From a virus: 10,452 bases of DNA. Shown here piece by piece: positions 1,232 to 10,371 of this stretch. Positions within the stretch are counted from its first letter, which is position 1, and every line of letters starts with the position of its first letter. Location of the stretch: the UHGV virus genome UHGV-0316020, one strand, 5' to 3'. A program made the translations under genes and the position numbers. The notes beneath the pieces are model-generated. The model saw only the letters and a list, made by a program, of their open reading frames with translations. It was not told where the DNA came from and made no database searches.

Positions 1232-3298
1232 TTATTCCTCTGGGTAAGCTGAGCTAATCAAGGTATCTTCCTGCATACGATTAATATGAGATGTGGTTCT
1301 TTCATCAATAACCTTTCCATCAAGTACCGTCTGAGTTGTGATATTGATTGTCTGAGGCTGAATGTTTACTGACGGCTTGATAACCTTTAAATCTTGTGTG
1401 AATGTTTCCACTCGACCTTTCAGATTATTTAATGCTTCAGGTGAAAACTGTGGAACATCCTTTGATTTGCCCTGAACCATAGCCCATAAAACAGCAGCTA
1501 AAGAGTTCATGTCACCAGTCAATGCTTGGTCTGTGGGTTCCACCTTTGACCTTACAACTTTGTCAATTGGATTATCTGACTTACTCATCTGACGTTCATA
1601 GAACGGTTTAACAATGGAGTTAATCACATCAGTTGCCATACCGACAATCATTACTTTGGTAATTGCATCAGCTACAGATAATTTTCCTTTACCACCTTCA
1701 ACACTACCGGAACGTGAATTAATTCTTCCTGCTGCTGTATTTGCTACATTTCCAAGCGTGGAAATAGCCCTAATTAAGCTCCAGATGCCACCTACAGCAC
1801 CAATACCAGACCTTACAGCAACAATACCAGCAAGTCCCTTTAATGCACTTAACAGGCCATTTGCGATACCATCAGCTACAGCTTTTTGAGTGTCATTTAA
1901 TTCTCTGTAAGCAAGGGTCACTCTGTCAAAGAATCCCTGCACTCGGTAGCTAATCGTGGTTAAATCATCAATACCGTTTGACATACTTTTCATCAAGTTG
2001 CCAAAATGTTCACCAAGATTTTTAGATTGCCCACCTAGCGAATTAAGTAAATTAGTCAGTGACCTTGTAAAGTCTGTTAACCCTTCCTGTGAACCATCGA
2101 ACATTAAGGCCAGATTATTATTCCATGAATTACTTAAGCGGCCTAACTGCGTCTGAGTAGAGTTAATAATCTTTTCCCATCCACCCGCTTTATCAATCAT
2201 CAAGCCCATCTGTTTAGCGACTTTAGGGAGAACATCTTTAGAAAGAACCTTACCGTCTTTCATGGCCTTGTCTAATTCTTCCGTAGTCATCCCAAGGCTT
2301 CTGGCAAATAACTGGAAAGCACCTGCCATTCTGTCACCTAGCTGACCGCGTAACTCTTCAGCTTGAATCTTTCCTTTAGAAGCCATCTGCTCGAAAGCTT
2401 TTAGAATCCCGTTAATCTCATCAGTGCTTAAACCCATTAGTCGGGATGTACCAATCACATTAGAAAATAAGGATTCTTTCTGGTCTGCATTCATATCACC
2501 AGCACCAGCGGAAAACTTAGCAAAGCTGCTTAATGTCTCAATCTGGTCTACACCAGTATTATTAGCAAGATTCTTAACAAATTCTGTAGCTCGTTTAGCA
2601 CCTTCATCACCTAAAACGAATTGTGCCGCTCGTTGTGATGCTTCTTTTTTCAGACCAACCTCCATAATCCGCCTGTAAGCTTCTAAGGCTGTCTGAAAAC
2701 TATAAATGGCTGTACCTGCTTTGATTGCACTTGTAGCTAATACATCCAGACCATTCGAAGCATTTTCACTGTGATTATTTTTGCTGGTGGTCTTGTTAAA
2801 CTTAGAAAGTGTTTCACGTAGATTTTGATTTAACTTTGCTAACTCACGATTAAAAGCTTCGTTCCCAAGTGTCTTGGATTTACTGCTTAAGCTGTAATAC
2901 TGGCTTCTAAAATACTTCTCAAGCAGAGGATTAAAGTCACGAAGTTTGCTCATATTCACGCTATGCGCTGCTGTGATTGCTCTGTTGCCGCTAATTCGTG
3001 GTTGCCTTGCTGCTTTAACAGTTTCTTCAACCTGAGTTTTGAACTTAAAGACCTTCGTAGATTTGGCTCTTTCCTCCAGCTTATTAAAAGTCTGGTTAAT
3101 CTTCTTTTCCATATTCCCCAAAGAGGCTGTTAAATCCTTATCCATGCTCTTTGGGTTAACTTTAAATGCTTTATTTAAATTACGCTCAATCTTTGTAGCT
3201 GACTGCAAAGCTGCCTTTTCAACTCTTTGCAGTCCCTTAATAACGTTCTCATTGAAGCCTAGCTCAACGATAAAACTATCAACTGTGAATTTGCTCAT
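1232..3298 (-). CDS. phage tail tape measure protein (TP901-family-type core)
   Basis: 688-aa ORF with helical repeat-rich N-terminus, a conserved tape-measure core (..EELRGQLGDRMAGAFQLFARSLGMTTEELDKAMKDGKVLSKDVLPKVAKQMG..) and a Gly-rich hydrophobic segment (GIANGLLSALKGLAGIVAVRSGIGAVGGIW); RBS GAGGTGA upstream of the ATG. Confidence 0.85.
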   Translation of the reverse strand: MSKFTVDSFIVELGFNENVIKGLQRVEKAALQSATKIERNLNKAFKVNPKSMDKDLTASLGNMEKKINQTFNKLEERAKSTKVFKFKTQVEETVKAARQPRISGNRAITAAHSVNMSKLRDFNPLLEKYFRSQYYSLSSKSKTLGNEAFNRELAKLNQNLRETLSKFNKTTSKNNHSENASNGLDVLATSAIKAGTAIYSFQTALEAYRRIMEVGLKKEASQRAAQFVLGDEGAKRATEFVKNLANNTGVDQIETLSSFAKFSAGAGDMNADQKESLFSNVIGTSRLMGLSTDEINGILKAFEQMASKGKIQAEELRGQLGDRMAGAFQLFARSLGMTTEELDKAMKDGKVLSKDVLPKVAKQMGLMIDKAGGWEKIINSTQTQLGRLSNSWNNNLALMFDGSQEGLTDFTRSLTNLLNSLGGQSKNLGEHFGNLMKSMSNGIDDLTTISYRVQGFFDRVTLAYRELNDTQKAVADGIANGLLSALKGLAGIVAVRSGIGAVGGIWSLIRAISTLGNVANTAAGRINSRSGSVEGGKGKLSVADAITKVMIVGMATDVINSIVKPFYERQMSKSDNPIDKVVRSKVEPTDQALTGDMNSLAAVLWAMVQGKSKDVPQFSPEALNNLKGRVETFTQDLKVIKPSVNIQPQTINITTQTVLDGKVIDERTTSHINRMQEDTLISSAYPEE

Positions 3299-5391: not shown

Positions 5392-5778
5392 TTACACAGA
5401 CGCTTTAATCTTGTAGTATTGACTACGTGATAAACCGTATTTCTCAGAAATATAACTTTGTGATTGTCCTTTGGTGATTGCATCAATGATTAAATCTTTA
5501 TCGTATCTGTTGCCATTGGCTTTGTGCTTGTCACCATTTTTAATAGAGTTGAAACTCTCAATTAATTTAATGGCGTCTTTAAGGTCGTCTTCGTAAGCAT
5601 AATCAAAACCCCTGATAAACTCGAAATCACCATTATCTTTTTGTGCTTCAGTCCAGATATCAAATCTTGAGGCTAATTGCTGGTGGGTAAACTTGGGTTT
5701 ATTGGTTTGTGTTACGTCTTTCCAGACTTTACCGTCAAATCTTACCAAATGGTCACGATGTTTATAAAAGTCATACAT
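5392..5778 (-). CDS. hypothetical protein with C-terminal helix-turn-helix (possible transcriptional regulator)
   Basis: 128-aa ORF; its ATG overlaps the stop of the upstream 93-aa ORF (TAATG at 5776-5780); C-terminus SQSYISEKYGLSRSQYYKIK has the helix-turn-recognition-helix pattern. Confidence 0.65.
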   Translation of the reverse strand: MYDFYKHRDHLVRFDGKVWKDVTQTNKPKFTHQQLASRFDIWTEAQKDNGDFEFIRGFDYAYEDDLKDAIKLIESFNSIKNGDKHKANGNRYDKDLIIDAITKGQSQSYISEKYGLSRSQYYKIKASV

Positions 5779-6059
5779 TAAACCTCCATCGCTAATTTGT
5801 GAATTTTGATGCTTAGCAACCTTGCTAAATCCAGTCCAAAAGCATTTAAAGATTTCAGACTATCAAGGTCATCTTGCTTAATCCTGATATGGTGTCTTGC
5901 AGCCTCTAAGCGACTATTAAGCAAATCTTGTTCGTTAATATCACGGTTAATTGCAAGCTTCATCACTGCTGAGTGTGGCAGACCTGTAATGTTTTTGATT
6001 CGGTTAAGTTCTTCAAAGGCTGTCTTTGTAACTCTGGTTAGCGTGTGTTTATTTCCCAT
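5778..6059 (-). CDS. hypothetical protein (93 aa; start revised to the internal ATG)
   Basis: The track ORF 5778..6161 overlaps the upstream gene by 100 nt and has no RBS; the ATG at 6057-6059 (MGNKHTLTRV..) is preceded by AGAGGAA and sits 2 nt after the stop of the 184-aa ORF. Confidence 0.6.
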   Translation of the reverse strand: MGNKHTLTRVTKTAFEELNRIKNITGLPHSAVMKLAINRDINEQDLLNSRLEAARHHIRIKQDDLDSLKSLNAFGLDLARLLSIKIHKLAMEV

Positions 6060-6060
6060 T

Positions 6061-6615
6061 TTAAAATTCCTCTGCTTGTGCGTATACGTCAAATTCAAAG
6101 TCTGGTTCACTGGTTGTAAGGCTGATATTTCCAACTTCCGCATGATGATTAATTGTCTCAATAACTTTCATACAAATAGTGGCTAAGTTAGCGCAATATT
6201 TATCACTTGGTAATTCGTAGCTAAGTCTGGTTGCTTGTCTTTGAAGATGGCTCGTCACTGTGCTTGAACTAATCTCATCAAGACTTCGCAGTAAATAAAA
6301 AACCTTCCGGTGATAATTATCTCTTCCAAGACTGCGACAAGTACCGATAATTACATCTTCAATTTTTGATGGTAGTTGCTCGTAAGAATCAAAGCTCATC
6401 AAGAAAGTTTTTAAAGTATTCTCTTTTTCTTTGCGTACTGGCATAAATCTGTCTCGTGGCGTAATGCTACGAATGACCGCTTCAATGTTTTTACGTTCGG
6501 TTTTGGAAAAGGCTGGTACTTCGTAGCTGGTGGGGGTGTCTGTGTAAGCGTAGGAGTTGTGCTTGTTGCGTTCTCTTGATGCCTGAAGCATCGCTCTAAA
6601 TTCTGAATCCTGCAT
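6061..6615 (-). CDS. hypothetical protein (184 aa), first gene of the minus-strand small-protein operon
   Basis: ORF directly downstream of a TTGACA-17-TAGTAT promoter; GAGGG upstream of the ATG; no motif recognised. Confidence 0.7.
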   Translation of the reverse strand: MQDSEFRAMLQASRERNKHNSYAYTDTPTSYEVPAFSKTERKNIEAVIRSITPRDRFMPVRKEKENTLKTFLMSFDSYEQLPSKIEDVIIGTCRSLGRDNYHRKVFYLLRSLDEISSSTVTSHLQRQATRLSYELPSDKYCANLATICMKVIETINHHAEVGNISLTTSEPDFEFDVYAQAEEF

Positions 6616-6666
6616 TCATATTCTGACCCTCATGAGATGTTATTATTCTGTTAACTTATATATACA

Positions 6667-6695
6667 ATACTAGCATTTTCAAAGACTAATGTCAA
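6667..6695 (-). promoter_or_regulatory. sigma70-like promoter for the 184/93/128/107-aa operon
   Basis: On the minus strand: TTGACA (complement of 6690-6695), 17-nt spacer, TAGTAT (complement of 6667-6672), about 50 nt upstream of the ATG at 6615. Confidence 0.5.
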
Positions 6696-6702
6696 GCATT
6701 TT

Positions 6703-6732
6703 TTAACATTTCATTAACATCTGTGGTATAAT
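6703..6732 (+). promoter_or_regulatory. divergent sigma70-like promoter with extended -10
   Basis: TTAACA (6703-6708), 18-nt spacer, TGgTATAAT (6724-6732); its -35 lies 8 bp from the -35 of the minus-strand promoter, giving a back-to-back arrangement. Confidence 0.45.
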
Positions 6733-6912
6733 GGTTCTATGAGAGAGGGAAAAATAGAAAAGGCGTGGCTATGTATTTGGTCGCATGTTTTGCATTGCAC
6801 ACAGACCTCTTCAATCGCTCTGTAACGAGTTAAATGGCCTCTTCAGGTCAACTATAAGGTCAGGTACTTTTTGTATCAGAATGCGATTGAGAGCGTCTTA
6901 CAAGGAAAACTA

Positions 6913-7089
6913 ATGGTAAATCTCCCTCCTGAGCTGGGGTCACCTGATGTATGGGCTGGTGGAGGCGTTGGGCTGATTGCAGGTCTGCTACTCCGCTACG
7001 TCCTCGTCAGAGTGCTTGTTGTCTTTAAACTGTTCGGTCGTACATGGACGCTTGACCTTAAGGATAATGACCACACAGAACCCCGTTAA
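6913..7089 (+). CDS. small single-pass membrane protein (58 aa)
   Basis: ATG at 6913 preceded by AAGGAAAA at about 6-nt spacing; the track ORF starts further upstream at a TTG with no RBS. Hydrophobic segment WAGGGVGLIAGLLLRYVLVRVLVVF. Looks more GC-rich than its neighbours. Confidence 0.5.
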   Translation: MVNLPPELGSPDVWAGGGVGLIAGLLLRYVLVRVLVVFKLFGRTWTLDLKDNDHTEPR

Positions 7090-7147
7090 CCCCCCTTCAA
7101 AACCCCCTGTACGAGATGACAGATAGAAGTCTATGGTATAGGGGTGC

Positions 7148-7190
7148 CTTTAGCATTTTGTGCTATCTATTAAAAAATAGCTTGACAGAA
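7148..7190. repeat. copy 1 of an imperfect direct repeat (CTTTAGCATTTnGTGCT..TTATTAA..CTTGACA) that flanks the methyltransferase cassette
   Basis: Aligns with 8272-8340 (about 22 of 26 matches in the first block plus a shared CTTGACA block); copy 2 carries an internal ~22-bp duplication. Confidence 0.5.
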
Positions 7191-7211
7191 CCGGAAAGCT
7201 GTACCTATCAA
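7182..7211 (+). promoter_or_regulatory. possible plus-strand promoter that would read antisense into the methyltransferase 3' region
   Basis: TTGACA (7182-7187), 18-nt spacer, TATCAA (7206-7211); no plus-strand ORF downstream. Confidence 0.25.
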
Positions 7212-7495
7212 GTATTCACCTCTCTGACAGTAACTTCTAAAAGTTCTTATTTTTCAATGAGTTGTAATCACCCAATATAAAGGACTGACAAGACTCTTCA
7301 CAGAGAACTTCCTGGACTCACTAAGATACAAGGCGATAACCCCAAAAAGGGAGAGCCACCTTCTTAACTGCCCCCTTAAACAATCTTTACAGACCCCGTT
7401 CACCAGTCTCAATATTTTATTTCTCGCTCTTCGTTTGTTGCTCGTTTCTATTATTGAGGGGGTTTGAAAAACCTCTGTAAAATAACCCTTCCAGT

Positions 7496-7528
7496 AAAAA
7501 GCGAATAACCCCAGAAAGGGGAAATCGC
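7496..7528 (-). terminator. intrinsic terminator of the methyltransferase gene
   Basis: On the minus strand: GCGA-UUU-CCCC-UUUCU-GGGG-UUAU-UCGC followed by UUUUU, about 40 nt after the stop at 7569. Confidence 0.55.
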
Positions 7529-7568
7529 CTCTTTAACATTCTCGTAATCAGTGCTCTATATGAGAATT

Positions 7569-8237
7569 TCAGCCCAACCTTTGAACAATCCTGTAAGTGG
7601 TGCTTAGAGGCATTCTTAGCGATTCTGCGATGCTCTTGATGGATTGCCCTTGGTCATGCATTTTAATCAACCTGTCAAGCGTCTGTGCATCGTGTATATG
7701 AGGTCTTCCACGTAAACCACCCCTGTTAACCACGGCAAGTAAAAGCATTGTGTCGCCACAATAAATTGTCTGGGTAACTTCAACTTTCGGTTTGCGGGGT
7801 GTGTTCCTGTATATCAAAACGCAACTTGGAAACGGTGAACGCGCTGCAACACCTTTCTTCCCTGCTGGTGGAAGGTATTTGACTGCTCGGTGTAACGTTC
7901 GAATCTCATGCAGGAAGGGGTTTGTATATACACACCGAAGCCAGTAAGTTGTCTTTGACCTGTGCGGAACCAGACATACACACACATCAGCTTCAGGGGC
8001 TTTTGAGAGGAACTGTTCAGCCATGCTAAACGGCGGGTTAACGAAGACCCGTTCACCAACCCACGATTGACGGCTTATATCATCGGTGAACCGTGGCAAC
8101 AATGCGTCATGCTCAGTTGCAGCACCATCTAAAGTGAAGTTAAACTCACGATGCAGGTTATGAAATAAACGATACGGTGTACGCCAGTCATCAGAACCAC
8201 CATGATAACGACCGACATTGATTATTGGATGTGACAC
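7569..8237 (-). CDS. Dam-family (phage-type, PF05869-like) DNA N6-adenine methyltransferase with a C-terminal serine-recombinase-like GRP+HTH extension
   Basis: GTG start with RBS AAGAGGGG upstream. N-terminal ~150 aa carry DWRTP, FTLDGAA, VFVNPPFS (NPPF catalytic motif), CLVPHRSKTTYW and FPSCVLIY. The final ~55 aa (..NRGGLRGRPHIHDAQTLDRLIKMHDQGQSIKSIAESLRMPLSTTYRIVQRLG) resemble a resolvase/invertase C-terminal DNA-binding domain. Confidence 0.8.
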   Translation of the reverse strand: MSHPIINVGRYHGGSDDWRTPYRLFHNLHREFNFTLDGAATEHDALLPRFTDDISRQSWVGERVFVNPPFSMAEQFLSKAPEADVCVCLVPHRSKTTYWLRCVYTNPFLHEIRTLHRAVKYLPPAGKKGVAARSPFPSCVLIYRNTPRKPKVEVTQTIYCGDTMLLLAVVNRGGLRGRPHIHDAQTLDRLIKMHDQGQSIKSIAESLRMPLSTTYRIVQRLG

Positions 8238-8271
8238 AAGCGAAGCGCCCCTCTTAGTATATTTCTTAATC

Positions 8272-8340
8272 GTCTCTTTAGCATTTAGTGCTTTTTATTA
8301 AGTTTAGCACTTTTTGCTAAAGACAAAACACTTGACAAAA
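8272..8340. repeat. copy 2 of the imperfect direct repeat flanking the methyltransferase cassette (with an internal duplication TTTAGTGCTTTTT / TTTAGCACTTTTT)
   Basis: See copy 1 at 7148-7190; lies directly upstream of the methyltransferase start codon. Confidence 0.5.
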
Positions 8341-8745
8341 TGGTAAGATTGTTCACATGACCTTACTTAACAGATTCTTAAGAGCTTTGAAACGAACTGT
8401 TTAACAGGTCACTACATCTGGTCTTATCGTTCCCTGTCTTCTTGGTAGTTCTGTTAAGTATCTTTTCAGGTATCTCTTACAGTCACTGTTAAGATGATAC
8501 TCTCCCTTCGGGTTATATCGTATCTCTCCTCCCGTTAAATACCCCTTCACAGTCAGACTAAATAACACCTGTGTAGTTTCTTGGTAGAATCTTTCAAGGT
8601 AACTTAACTCTGAGTTTATGAAGTTGACCTATGAGATAGATTCTACCGAATCTGTTAGTCAATTGTTGCTTAGGTGCTGCTAAGGCTTACTTAGTGGGAA
8701 GAGAGGGAATATGTGACCATAGGAACCCCTCCTGTTAAAAGTTTC

Positions 8746-8773
8746 TTGACGTTACTATCTCGATATGTATAAT
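8746..8773 (+). promoter_or_regulatory. strong sigma70-like promoter (TTGACG, 16 nt, TATAAT)
   Basis: TTGACG at 8746-8751; TATAAT at 8768-8773 preceded by TG; a CCTGTTAAAA motif (8731-8740) abuts the -35. Confidence 0.6.
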
Positions 8774-8779
8774 GGCTTA

Positions 8780-8950
8780 CTGTACTAGGTTTACTTCCAA
8801 AGCAACCAAGCACACTCTCTATGGCAGTGTCCGGCGAGGTAAGGTCGTGTAGGGTGCGGTTCGGTGGGGTAAGGTTTGGTGCGGTATGGGTGGATTGTCG
8901 TAGCCACGTTAAAAATCGACTTATAGGGACTCTTTCGGGAGTCCTTTTTA
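8780..8950 (+). ncRNA. candidate ~170-nt G-rich small RNA delimited by promoter and intrinsic terminator; class unknown
   Basis: Predicted start about 7 nt after the -10 and end at the terminator U-tract; body contains tandem GGTAAGGT / GGTGCGGT units (8838-8895); no RBS-equipped ORF inside. Confidence 0.4.
8927..8950 (+). terminator. intrinsic terminator: GGACUC(U)-UUCG-(G)GAGUCC hairpin followed by UUUUU
   Basis: 7-bp stem including one G-U pair (8927-8933 / 8938-8944), UUCG tetraloop (8934-8937), T-run at 8945-8949. Confidence 0.6.
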
Positions 8951-9154: not shown

Positions 9155-9703
9155 TTATTTAGCAAGTCTGTAATAAGTTGCTCTAGAGATTCCTAACTCT
9201 TCCTGAATCTGCAACCTCGTCTTACCTTGTGAAATAAGCGCCTGTACAGCCTCTGAAGAAGCTTTTACAGGCCTCCCCATATGTACCCCTTCAGCTTTAG
9301 CACGTTCAATACCAGCCTTTCTACGTTCACTGATAAGGTCTTTTTCAAGGTCAGCTAAACCAGCCATCATAGTAAGCATTGCTTTACCGATTGGTGTAGA
9401 CAGGTCAAAACCTTCACGTAAAGAAACAACCCTCACACCTTTAGTCTGTAGTGCCTCCACGTTAGAGAGCACATCAACGGTATTACGCCCTAAACGGTCA
9501 ATAGCTACCACAACTAACGTATCGTCACACCTTACATAGTTCATCATGTCTCTAAAACCATCTCTGCTGGTGGCCTTTGTAGCTCCTGAGACAGCCTCAT
9601 CAATAAACCATTTATCGACCTTGTGAACCTTCTCTATCTGTAGTTTCTGGTTGTCTACAGTCTGGTCTTGTGTTGATACCCTGCAATAACCAATCACCGC
9701 CAT
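9155..9703 (-). CDS. small serine recombinase (resolvase / Hin-Gin-type invertase family)
   Basis: 182-aa ORF; N-terminal IGYCRVSTQDQ with the catalytic Ser at position 10; VVAIDRLGRNT; E-helix ..ERRKAGIERAKAEGVHMGRP; C-terminal HTH LQIQEELGISRATYYRL; RBS AGGGG upstream of the ATG. Confidence 0.9.
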   Translation of the reverse strand: MAVIGYCRVSTQDQTVDNQKLQIEKVHKVDKWFIDEAVSGATKATSRDGFRDMMNYVRCDDTLVVVAIDRLGRNTVDVLSNVEALQTKGVRVVSLREGFDLSTPIGKAMLTMMAGLADLEKDLISERRKAGIERAKAEGVHMGRPVKASSEAVQALISQGKTRLQIQEELGISRATYYRLAK

Positions 9704-9719
9704 AATGTTCCCCTAAGAA

Positions 9720-9825
9720 GTCTCAAAAGTTGGTCTCATAAGTTTAGCTGTCTCATAATTCAAAAACAAGCTTATGAGACACTTGGAAGGTGCATTCTAC
9801 CGTTACGTTGAAAGTGTCTCAAAAG
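9720..9825. promoter_or_regulatory. array of five GTCTCA(A/T)AA(G/T) repeats (four direct, one inverted) directly upstream of the recombinase start: operator- or iteron-like
   Basis: Copies at 9720-9729, 9733-9742, 9750-9759, 9771-9780 (inverted) and 9816-9825; 9733-9742 and 9771-9780 form a perfect 10-bp inverted repeat. Confidence 0.45.
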
Positions 9826-10126: not shown

Positions 10127-10371
10127 TAGATACTTGGAAATCTACTATTAAATTGCATAGTCATTCACCTGATATTGTCAAATGATTATGACTTCAATGA
10201 CCCTTGAATGAAGTCTATTCGGTTTTCTAAGAGACCTGTTAAAAACAGGACAATATCAGGTGAATGACTATGCAATTTAATAGTAGATTTCCAAGTATCT
10301 ACCTGTTTTTAACAGGTCTCTTAGAAAACCGAATAGACTTCATTCAAGGGTCATTGAAGTCATAATCATTT
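10127..10371. repeat. interleaved inverted repeat A-B-A'-B': A 10127-10179, B 10180-10249, A' 10249-10301 (reverse complement of A), B' 10302-10371 (reverse complement of B)
   Basis: Verified base by base: 10249-10301 is the exact reverse complement of 10127-10179, and 10302-10371 is the exact reverse complement of 10180-10249. B ends in the near-palindrome CCTGTTAAAAACAGG. Confidence 0.8.

Follow-up and report, generated by a model that had tools for sequence, protein, structure and literature searches.

Palindromic repeats flanking a methyltransferase gene in an Escherichia coli chromosomal island resemble operators beside predicted promoters

The repressor operators of lambdoid phages (lambda OR/OL) are 17-base-pair (bp) dyads set in adjacent pairs, and the known crossover sites of serine recombinases, at ~25-34 bp, are longer. 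Palindromes also stand upstream of methyltransferase genes whose products bear a helix-turn-helix (HTH), as in the autoregulating M.SsoII/M.EcoRII type, and form the C-boxes of restriction-modification C proteins; in integrons a cargo gene occupies a variable slot flanked by repeats (attC/attI). Here we examine a 10,452-nucleotide (nt) stretch of the virus genome UHGV-0316020 (the window, meaning the whole stretch analysed), in which two related blocks flank a gene for a Dam-family methyltransferase. A preliminary description had read the blocks as direct repeats for res-site-mediated deletion or cassette acquisition by a nearby serine recombinase and, alternatively, as duplicated promoter/operator modules. 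We find that the repeats belong to ordinary regulatory DNA and do not serve to excise or insert the methyltransferase gene; judging from the sequence they are probably operators for a dimeric DNA-binding protein that would control promoters pointing rightward in the island's accessory arm. Repetition of an operator at two promoters is familiar from mobile elements, and the present case adds an example from an island that appears to be undescribed.

The two blocks share a 26-nt unit, at 7148-7173 (CTTTAGCATTTTGTGCTATCTATTAA) and 8276-8301 (CTTTAGCATTTAGTGCTTTTTATTAA), identical at 23 of 26 positions without gaps. This is the top-scoring direct 26-mer pair of the whole 10.4-kb window; the best pair in each of 30 dinucleotide-preserving shuffles of the window reached only 19-22 matches. 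The two related blocks around the methyltransferase gene are thus where the preliminary description had put them, and their similarity exceeds that in every shuffle. A third, weaker copy (69%) is found at 8302-8327. In a gapped alignment the second block (B) equals the first (A) plus a 23-nt insertion, which holds this third copy, and CTTGACA closes both blocks, so that each has the TTGACA hexamer previously reported (7182-7187 in block A, 8332-8337 in block B).

Every copy contains a 17-bp palindrome, TTAGCA-N5-TGCTAA, as its core, a motif that is matched three times in the window at two mismatches or fewer, against 0.69 matches expected by chance. We call these strandless sites O1 (7150-7166, TTAGCATTTTGTGCTAT, one mismatch, within the copy at 7148-7173), O2 (8278-8294, TTAGCATTTAGTGCTTT, two mismatches) and O3 (8304-8320, TTAGCACTTTTTGCTAA, a perfect palindrome with no mismatch). 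The centres of O2 and O3 are separated by 26 bp, and the pair makes up a compound palindrome of 47-49 nt (8275-8323). Since the cores are palindromic, the orientation of the blocks is set by their flanks alone; the claim that both point the same way holds for the flanks and has no meaning in the cores. A scan of locus L011 found no further O site in the rest of the island or in ~9 kb of host flank.

O1, O2 and O3 were each scored in 22 related loci (the window included) from E. coli, E. albertii, Citrobacter and IMG/VR, a site being called intact at two mismatches or fewer. All 22 retain an intact O1, an intact O2-O3 or both, and none has neither. Both modules are intact in the window, L002, L036 and L037, which have the methyltransferase gene, and in L014, which lacks it. 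O1 alone is intact in L030, L031, L032 and L161, with the gene, and in L012, L013, L017, L019, L020, L023, L033 and L160, without it, as well as in L024, also without the gene, whose sequence ends before the O2-O3 position. O2-O3 alone is intact in L034, L035, L158 and L159, all without the gene, and in no locus with it. The position that is not retained has 6-12 mismatches. Such reciprocal retention suggests a need for one functional site and partial redundancy between the two positions. Since the O sites are intact with or without the methyltransferase and the small recombinase across the 22 loci, the repeats are independent of both.

In a 740-bp alignment of 14 islands, the segment 7148-7167, corresponding to O1, is the best-conserved 20 nt (99.6% mean column identity), better conserved than the neighbouring open reading frame (ORF) of 58 amino acids (aa). 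O3 is unchanged in nine loci, including L158 and L159 from Citrobacter, despite differing flanks. Site variation falls in the central 5 nt (TTTTG, TTTAG, CTTTT and, in one reading, ATTCG) while the half-sites are kept. The O sites therefore have what is looked for in an operator, namely a dyad of 14-18 bp with fixed half-sites and a variable centre, present in multiple copies beside predicted promoters and conserved above neighbouring non-coding DNA.

Among 5426 complete E. coli genomes, 403 have the O1 module and 70 have O2-O3, always on the chromosome. A decayed but recognisable O1 with its promoter-like sequence is seen in the Citrobacter islands and L034, and the majority E. coli type has an apparent decayed O2-O3 in the same 64-bp slot; both module positions are old. 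Most E. coli islands keep O1, the Citrobacter and some E. coli islands keep O2-O3, and the lineage of the window keeps both modules, which is why they looked like a direct repeat when the window was first read.

Both modules lie beside promoter-like sequences that point rightward. The first predicted promoter, P_A (7182-7211, plus strand), consists of TTGACA (7182-7187), an 18-nt spacer and TATCAA (7206-7211), and is preceded by an A-tract. O1 sits 16 bp upstream of this TTGACA, and its centre is ~61 bp upstream of the inferred P_A start. P_A is invariant or nearly so in the 14 aligned islands, and P_A and O1 decay jointly in L034, L158 and L159. A simple promoter scan does not call P_A because the final base of its -10 element is A, the conserved T being absent (TTGACA-18-TATCAA). 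The second, P_B (8332-8349, plus strand), combines a conserved TTGACA (8332-8337) with a conserved extended -10-like sequence, TGGTAAGAT (8341-8349). These are only 5-6 nt apart and so cannot form a single -35/-10 pair; AAGACA (8320-8325), which abuts O3 and stands 18 nt before TGGTAAGAT, could serve as the -35 of the extended -10. The pattern of the latter, TGnTAnnnT, is retained across seven sequence variants, and the P_B elements are present in all 21 islands with sequence reaching that position. The alternative offered in the preliminary description, duplicated promoter/operator modules, is accordingly supported: the sites are palindromic, have predicted promoters as neighbours and are conserved between islands of two genera.

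Further promoter-like DNA surrounds the modules. Downstream of P_A, at 7227-7309, is a unit of ~85 nt (TTCTAAAAGTT...CAATATAA...CTTCACAGA) that holds a promoter-like TTCAAT-17-TATAAA; it is single in the window and a tandem duplicate in most related islands (4654-4802 in L012, 4673-4940 in L014). The main divergent promoter region (6635-6725) has a leftward TTGACA-17-TAGTAT and a rightward TTAACA-18-TATAAT, each with a TG extension; flanking it are TGTTAA/TGTTAT direct repeats at 11-bp spacing, in two inverted pairs, which resemble ArcA boxes. TGTTAA-like motifs are also frequent in other non-coding DNA of the window.

The palindromic form of the sites, their conservation and reciprocal retention, their place beside promoter-like elements and their independence from methyltransferase and recombinase are what lead us to favour operators. 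A dimeric sequence-specific protein would bind the 17-bp cores just upstream of the rightward promoter-like sequences, with O1 acting from ~61 bp upstream of the P_A start and the O2-O3 pair abutting P_B, in the gap between P_B and the divergent methyltransferase gene. The methyltransferase would then be cargo unconnected with the two modules, its place between them being incidental. Protein binding, the firing of P_A and P_B, and repression or activation are what we infer from these observations.

The binder should be present in all islands or else be supplied by the host. The recombinase is unlikely in this role, since many islands lack it or carry a different one, and so is the HTH of the methyltransferase, since O2-O3 is missing beside homologues that share its recognition helix. 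A conserved 93-aa protein (5778-6059, minus strand) is a weak candidate, its N-terminus being ribbon-helix-helix-like by eye, a likeness unconfirmed by any computation. Among known E. coli binding sites (CRP, FNR, LexA, NtrC, sigma-54, the GAD box and others), we know of no convincing match to the O sites.

Several results weigh against operators. Neither P_A nor P_B is a strong sigma-70 match, given the TATCAA of the P_A -10 and the TTGACA of P_B, which is only 5-6 nt from the -10-like element. Searches for the binder among the 93-, 184-, 128-, 107-, 70- and 234-aa proteins, using Pfam, PHROG, NCBIfam and sequences in the Protein Data Bank (PDB), gave nothing above threshold. The AlphaFold model of the 93-aa protein has a predicted local distance difference test score (pLDDT) of 47 and is unusable, although its helix pattern is compatible with a ribbon-helix-helix; that of the 184-aa protein has a pLDDT of 56, and Foldseek found nothing for it in the PDB at E <= 0.001. 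Site variation is too low for covariation to separate protein binding from a DNA or RNA hairpin, and O2-O3 does fold.

Two further lines on the binder were set aside. A profile of the 93-aa family gave ~200 weak matches among 1.84 billion proteins, which proved to be artefacts: the alignment included a truncated homologue (row P0027) running into the end of an insertion sequence, and the matches are unrelated genes disrupted by that same insertion sequence. The 128-aa protein, which has a resolvase-like HTH, is replaced in many islands with O1 by an unrelated small protein and an HNH endonuclease.

The folding just mentioned raises the question of whether the palindromes act instead as DNA or RNA structures, as parts of terminators, as a cruciform at a replication origin or as a packaging signal. 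O2-O3 folds as a long hairpin (47 nt) on either strand, with z about -4, and O1 forms a small hairpin immediately after the terminator of the 58-aa ORF, a terminator-like hairpin at 7104-7144 (plus strand; RNA folding energy -23.7 kcal/mol, z = -2.8) whose U-rich tail enters O1. Downstream of P_B, moreover, the island has extended non-coding DNA in which further motifs are repeated. Against this, each 17-bp unit is palindromic by itself, O1 stands without a long hairpin, and no U-run follows O2-O3 on either strand. The half-site change TGCTAT to TGCCAT is tolerated in L034, L158 and L036 without a compensating change, and neither a replication initiator nor a terminase was recognised in the island. 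We consider a structural role unlikely.

The similarity might also reflect just two related promoters with a common upstream context and no dedicated regulator. Both blocks close in CTTGACA after A-rich sequence, and a third promoter, at 6690-6704 on the minus strand, has AAAAAATGCTTGACA in common with them. This account leaves the dyad symmetry, the fixed half-sites with variable centre and the reciprocal retention unexplained, and P_B is found in most islands without O2-O3. We give this account only a small chance of being right.

The methyltransferase (222 aa; 7569-8237, minus strand) is annotated as a DNA N-6-adenine-methyltransferase by the Prokaryotic Genome Annotation Pipeline (PGAP), matches the Dam family of Pfam (E = 6.5e-14) and carries a C-terminal HTH of resolvase type (HTH_7, E = 1.5e-5). 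This HTH might bind O2-O3, and O1, as autoregulatory operators, by analogy with methyltransferases that act as repressors of their own promoters; O2-O3, 40-85 bp upstream of the start codon, is where the promoter of the gene would be expected. The comparison of loci speaks against autoregulation at several points. The homologue in L030 is 93% identical, with an essentially identical recognition helix, and has 6-7 mismatches at O2-O3; O2-O3 is intact in L014, L034, L035, L158 and L159 with no methyltransferase; and O1 is intact in L012, which has no resolvase-type HTH protein of any kind. We hold autoregulation by the methyltransferase to be quite improbable.

If the repeats served to delete or acquire the methyltransferase gene, its presence and absence should be bounded by them. 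The gene has its own intrinsic terminator (7499-7540, minus strand; a hairpin followed by UUUUU), of which a weaker paralogous hairpin lies at 7330-7370. A block at 7481-8230, comprising the ORF minus its first two codons together with this terminator, is missing from L014, L033 and L019, where a 31-bp hairpin occupies its place (breakpoints 7480/8231). In L012, L013, L020, L023 and L017, BLAST homology ends near 7310 and restarts at 8319, with 8238-8255 kept too. No breakpoint falls at 7190/8272, and relatives that lack exactly the segment from repeat to repeat, as a deletion would leave them, were not seen among these loci; what is found is relatives that carry the repeats with no cassette boundary at them, the outcome that the preliminary description had named as refuting its reading. 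The synthetic joint of the two 26-mers was also not seen contiguous in the 25 best-ranked of 440 matching E. coli genomes, where matches always came in two pieces spanning about 700-820 bp with the halves about 400-530 bp apart.

A serine recombinase is indeed encoded nearby, ~0.9 kb from the repeats, by a 182-aa gene at 9155-9703 (minus strand) with a Resolvase N-terminal domain in Pfam (E = 9.8e-42), HTH_7 and a PHROG match to 'DNA invertase' (E = 2e-58). It has motifs of its own: TGTCTCAWAA is matched nine times in the window (2.9 expected), and five of the nine matches cluster upstream of the gene at 9719-9824, among them a perfect 10-bp inverted pair at 9749-9781 (33 bp, with a 13-bp spacer). 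This cluster is likely a res-like or autoregulatory site of the 182-aa recombinase, as far as its sequence indicates, and possibly resolves multimers of the excised island. The motif upstream of the recombinase gene changes with recombinase type (GTCTATAG-like in L031/L035, TACCGAT-like in L034) while the O sites stay constant; nor do the O sites carry the recombinase motif as inverted pairs of ~25-34 bp. There is no small recombinase in L012, L013, L036 and L037, yet their O sites are unaltered.

That the repeats are res-like or cassette attachment sites, at which the small serine recombinase deletes or acquires the segment 7190-8272, therefore has hardly any probability: direct repeats (by their flanks) do surround a cargo gene near a serine recombinase gene, and the region between the modules does vary among islands, but the repeats persist without the recombinase, coexist with unrelated recombinases (L031, L034, L035, L158, L159), are both intact in L014 with no methyltransferase between them, are shorter than known crossover sites, and match neither the breakpoints, the predicted junction nor the recombinase's own motif.

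Turning to the neighbouring features, the 58-aa ORF (6913-7089, plus strand) has a hydrophobic core and a good ribosome-binding site, and its annotation is absent or variable; variation at its third codon positions in the 14 islands marks it as a real conserved gene for a small membrane protein. Downstream of P_B, in the region 8356-8950, ~390 nt are common to all islands and contain no conserved ORF. Repeated CTGTTAAG/CTTAACAG motifs occur there, with CTATTAAG in the most diverged island. RNAalifold gives a weak consensus for the P_B transcript (-11.6 kcal/mol), with covariation confined to one UUCG-loop hairpin, which shows compensatory changes. This shared region is followed by ~170 nt that lie between a strong promoter at 8746-8773 (TTGACG-16-TATAAT) and, at 8925-8946, an intrinsic terminator. 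On sequence grounds 8356-8950 may encode non-coding RNAs, or act in replication origin or packaging.

The window covers most of a chromosomal island of E. coli, ~11.7 kb long, with a large serine recombinase gene at one end; the island of L158, from Citrobacter, has a tyrosine integrase instead. Relatives of the region 6600-8900 were found in 483 of 5426 complete E. coli genomes (~9%), always on the chromosome. The exact methyltransferase protein occurs in contigs from 284 blocks of a public-assembly index, and the contigs read place its gene in the ~11.7-kb island. A scan of a genome collection with the 184-aa protein returned a single locus, from E. albertii. Strain CUPS04 carries the island between tonB and yciI, and other integration sites of related islands include DUF72/yecN, ymdF-rutG and mdtG.

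Both ends of the window show peculiarities. At 10127-10371 are two interleaved 100% inverted repeats, one of X (10127-10179) and its partner X' (10249-10301), the other of Y (10180-10249) and its partner Y' (10302-10371). Where this island sits at yciI in CUPS04 and others, it has X followed by Y' only, so the window has 122 nt more (10180-10301). They repeat the natural junction in reverse complement and are inserted exactly at the right boundary of the island; they could be a natural fold-back at the attachment (att) site or an assembly artefact. Rfam gave only sub-threshold matches to microRNA families, on perfect inverted repeats at 10211-10340. Positions 1-220 form a self-complementary element like a miniature inverted-repeat transposable element (76% inverted identity over 220 nt), containing MDEKQLQTLANELAKNLKTPEDL, presumably the start of an IS256-like transposase. 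Where CUPS04 has the 3' part of the large serine recombinase gene, the window has this element instead, and the integrase of the source strain is therefore probably disrupted.

Two island genes on the minus strand are phage-like, encoding a tape measure protein (1232-3298) and a Dit-like baseplate protein (288-1058). The latter is ~70% identical to a protein of Ounavirinae phages, in which its gene follows the tape measure gene, and both genes have ~74-76% DNA identity with Suspvirus mistaenkt; taken together, they are about 70-75% identical to their counterparts in virulent Ounavirinae (Suspvirus/Felixounavirus). Among the island proteins searched we recognised no capsid protein, terminase, replication protein or initiator. 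The region had no match among 50,697 phage records by megablast or blastn, a 76-nt O1 query gave only chance-level matches (E = 8), and our literature search found no paper describing the island. The 86.7-kb genome of Suspvirus mistaenkt has no O site at one mismatch or fewer and only scattered matches at two, so the O motif is not a helper motif in that phage. Scanning IMG/VR for TTTAGCA-N5-TGCTAAA was uninformative, with >120 unrelated single matches. A 25-nt stretch of the window (8628-8652) matches Suspvirus mistaenkt at 23 of 25 positions (85422-85446), in the loop of a terminator-like hairpin at the non-coding right end of that genome; L158 has a 24-nt match to the same stretch, in a different place.

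The island looks like an undescribed phage satellite or hitcher. A more specific proposal, which we offer as a tentative and rather doubtful extension of the operator reading, is that the O sites are the regulatory switch of undescribed E. coli/Citrobacter satellites that parasitise FelixO1-like (Ounavirinae) virulent phages. A factor encoded by the island or induced by infection would bind O1, O2-O3 or both when the helper infects, and would turn on rightward non-coding and cargo transcripts, including the conserved RNA downstream of P_B; selection would preserve at least one intact operator module per island.

The finding itself is of modest weight. It removes a tempting reading, in which a recombinase moves a methyltransferase cassette, and puts an ordinary operator/promoter architecture in its place. 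The O sites are the best-conserved non-coding feature of an island present in ~9% of complete E. coli genomes, and if the island is a satellite they are the obvious starting point for how it senses its helper. The surrounding island, possibly a satellite of FelixO1-like phages, is a more interesting lead than the repeats themselves.

Set against the described systems, the locus resembles Tn3/gamma-delta res and hix/gix sites in having direct repeats and a nearby small serine recombinase with a resolvase-type HTH, but the O sites are too short, neither co-occur nor co-vary with the recombinase and do not lie at indel boundaries, the res-like cluster of the window recombinase at 9719-9824 being of a different motif. 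As in integrons, a cargo gene sits in a variable slot flanked by repeats; here there is no IntI tyrosine recombinase, the repeats lie off the cassette boundaries, and they do not resemble attC hairpins. M.SsoII/M.EcoRII-type methyltransferases and C-boxes share with our locus the palindromes upstream of the gene for an HTH-bearing methyltransferase, from which the O sites differ in being independent of the methyltransferase and its HTH across relatives; unlike the restriction-modification systems with C-boxes, the window has no restriction enzyme or C-protein gene. The likeness to lambdoid operators, drawn from sequence, has its own differences, in that no repressor gene was identified beside the O sites, that their positions, about -44, -61 and -70 relative to the inferred starts, would fit activation no less than repression, and that they do not lie at the main divergent promoter of the island (6667-6732). 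The resemblance is otherwise extensive: the O sites share the 17-bp length, the 6-bp half-sites and the variable centre, occur several to an element with a tandem pair 26 bp apart centre to centre, and stand in a divergent intergenic region, either at promoters or upstream of them.

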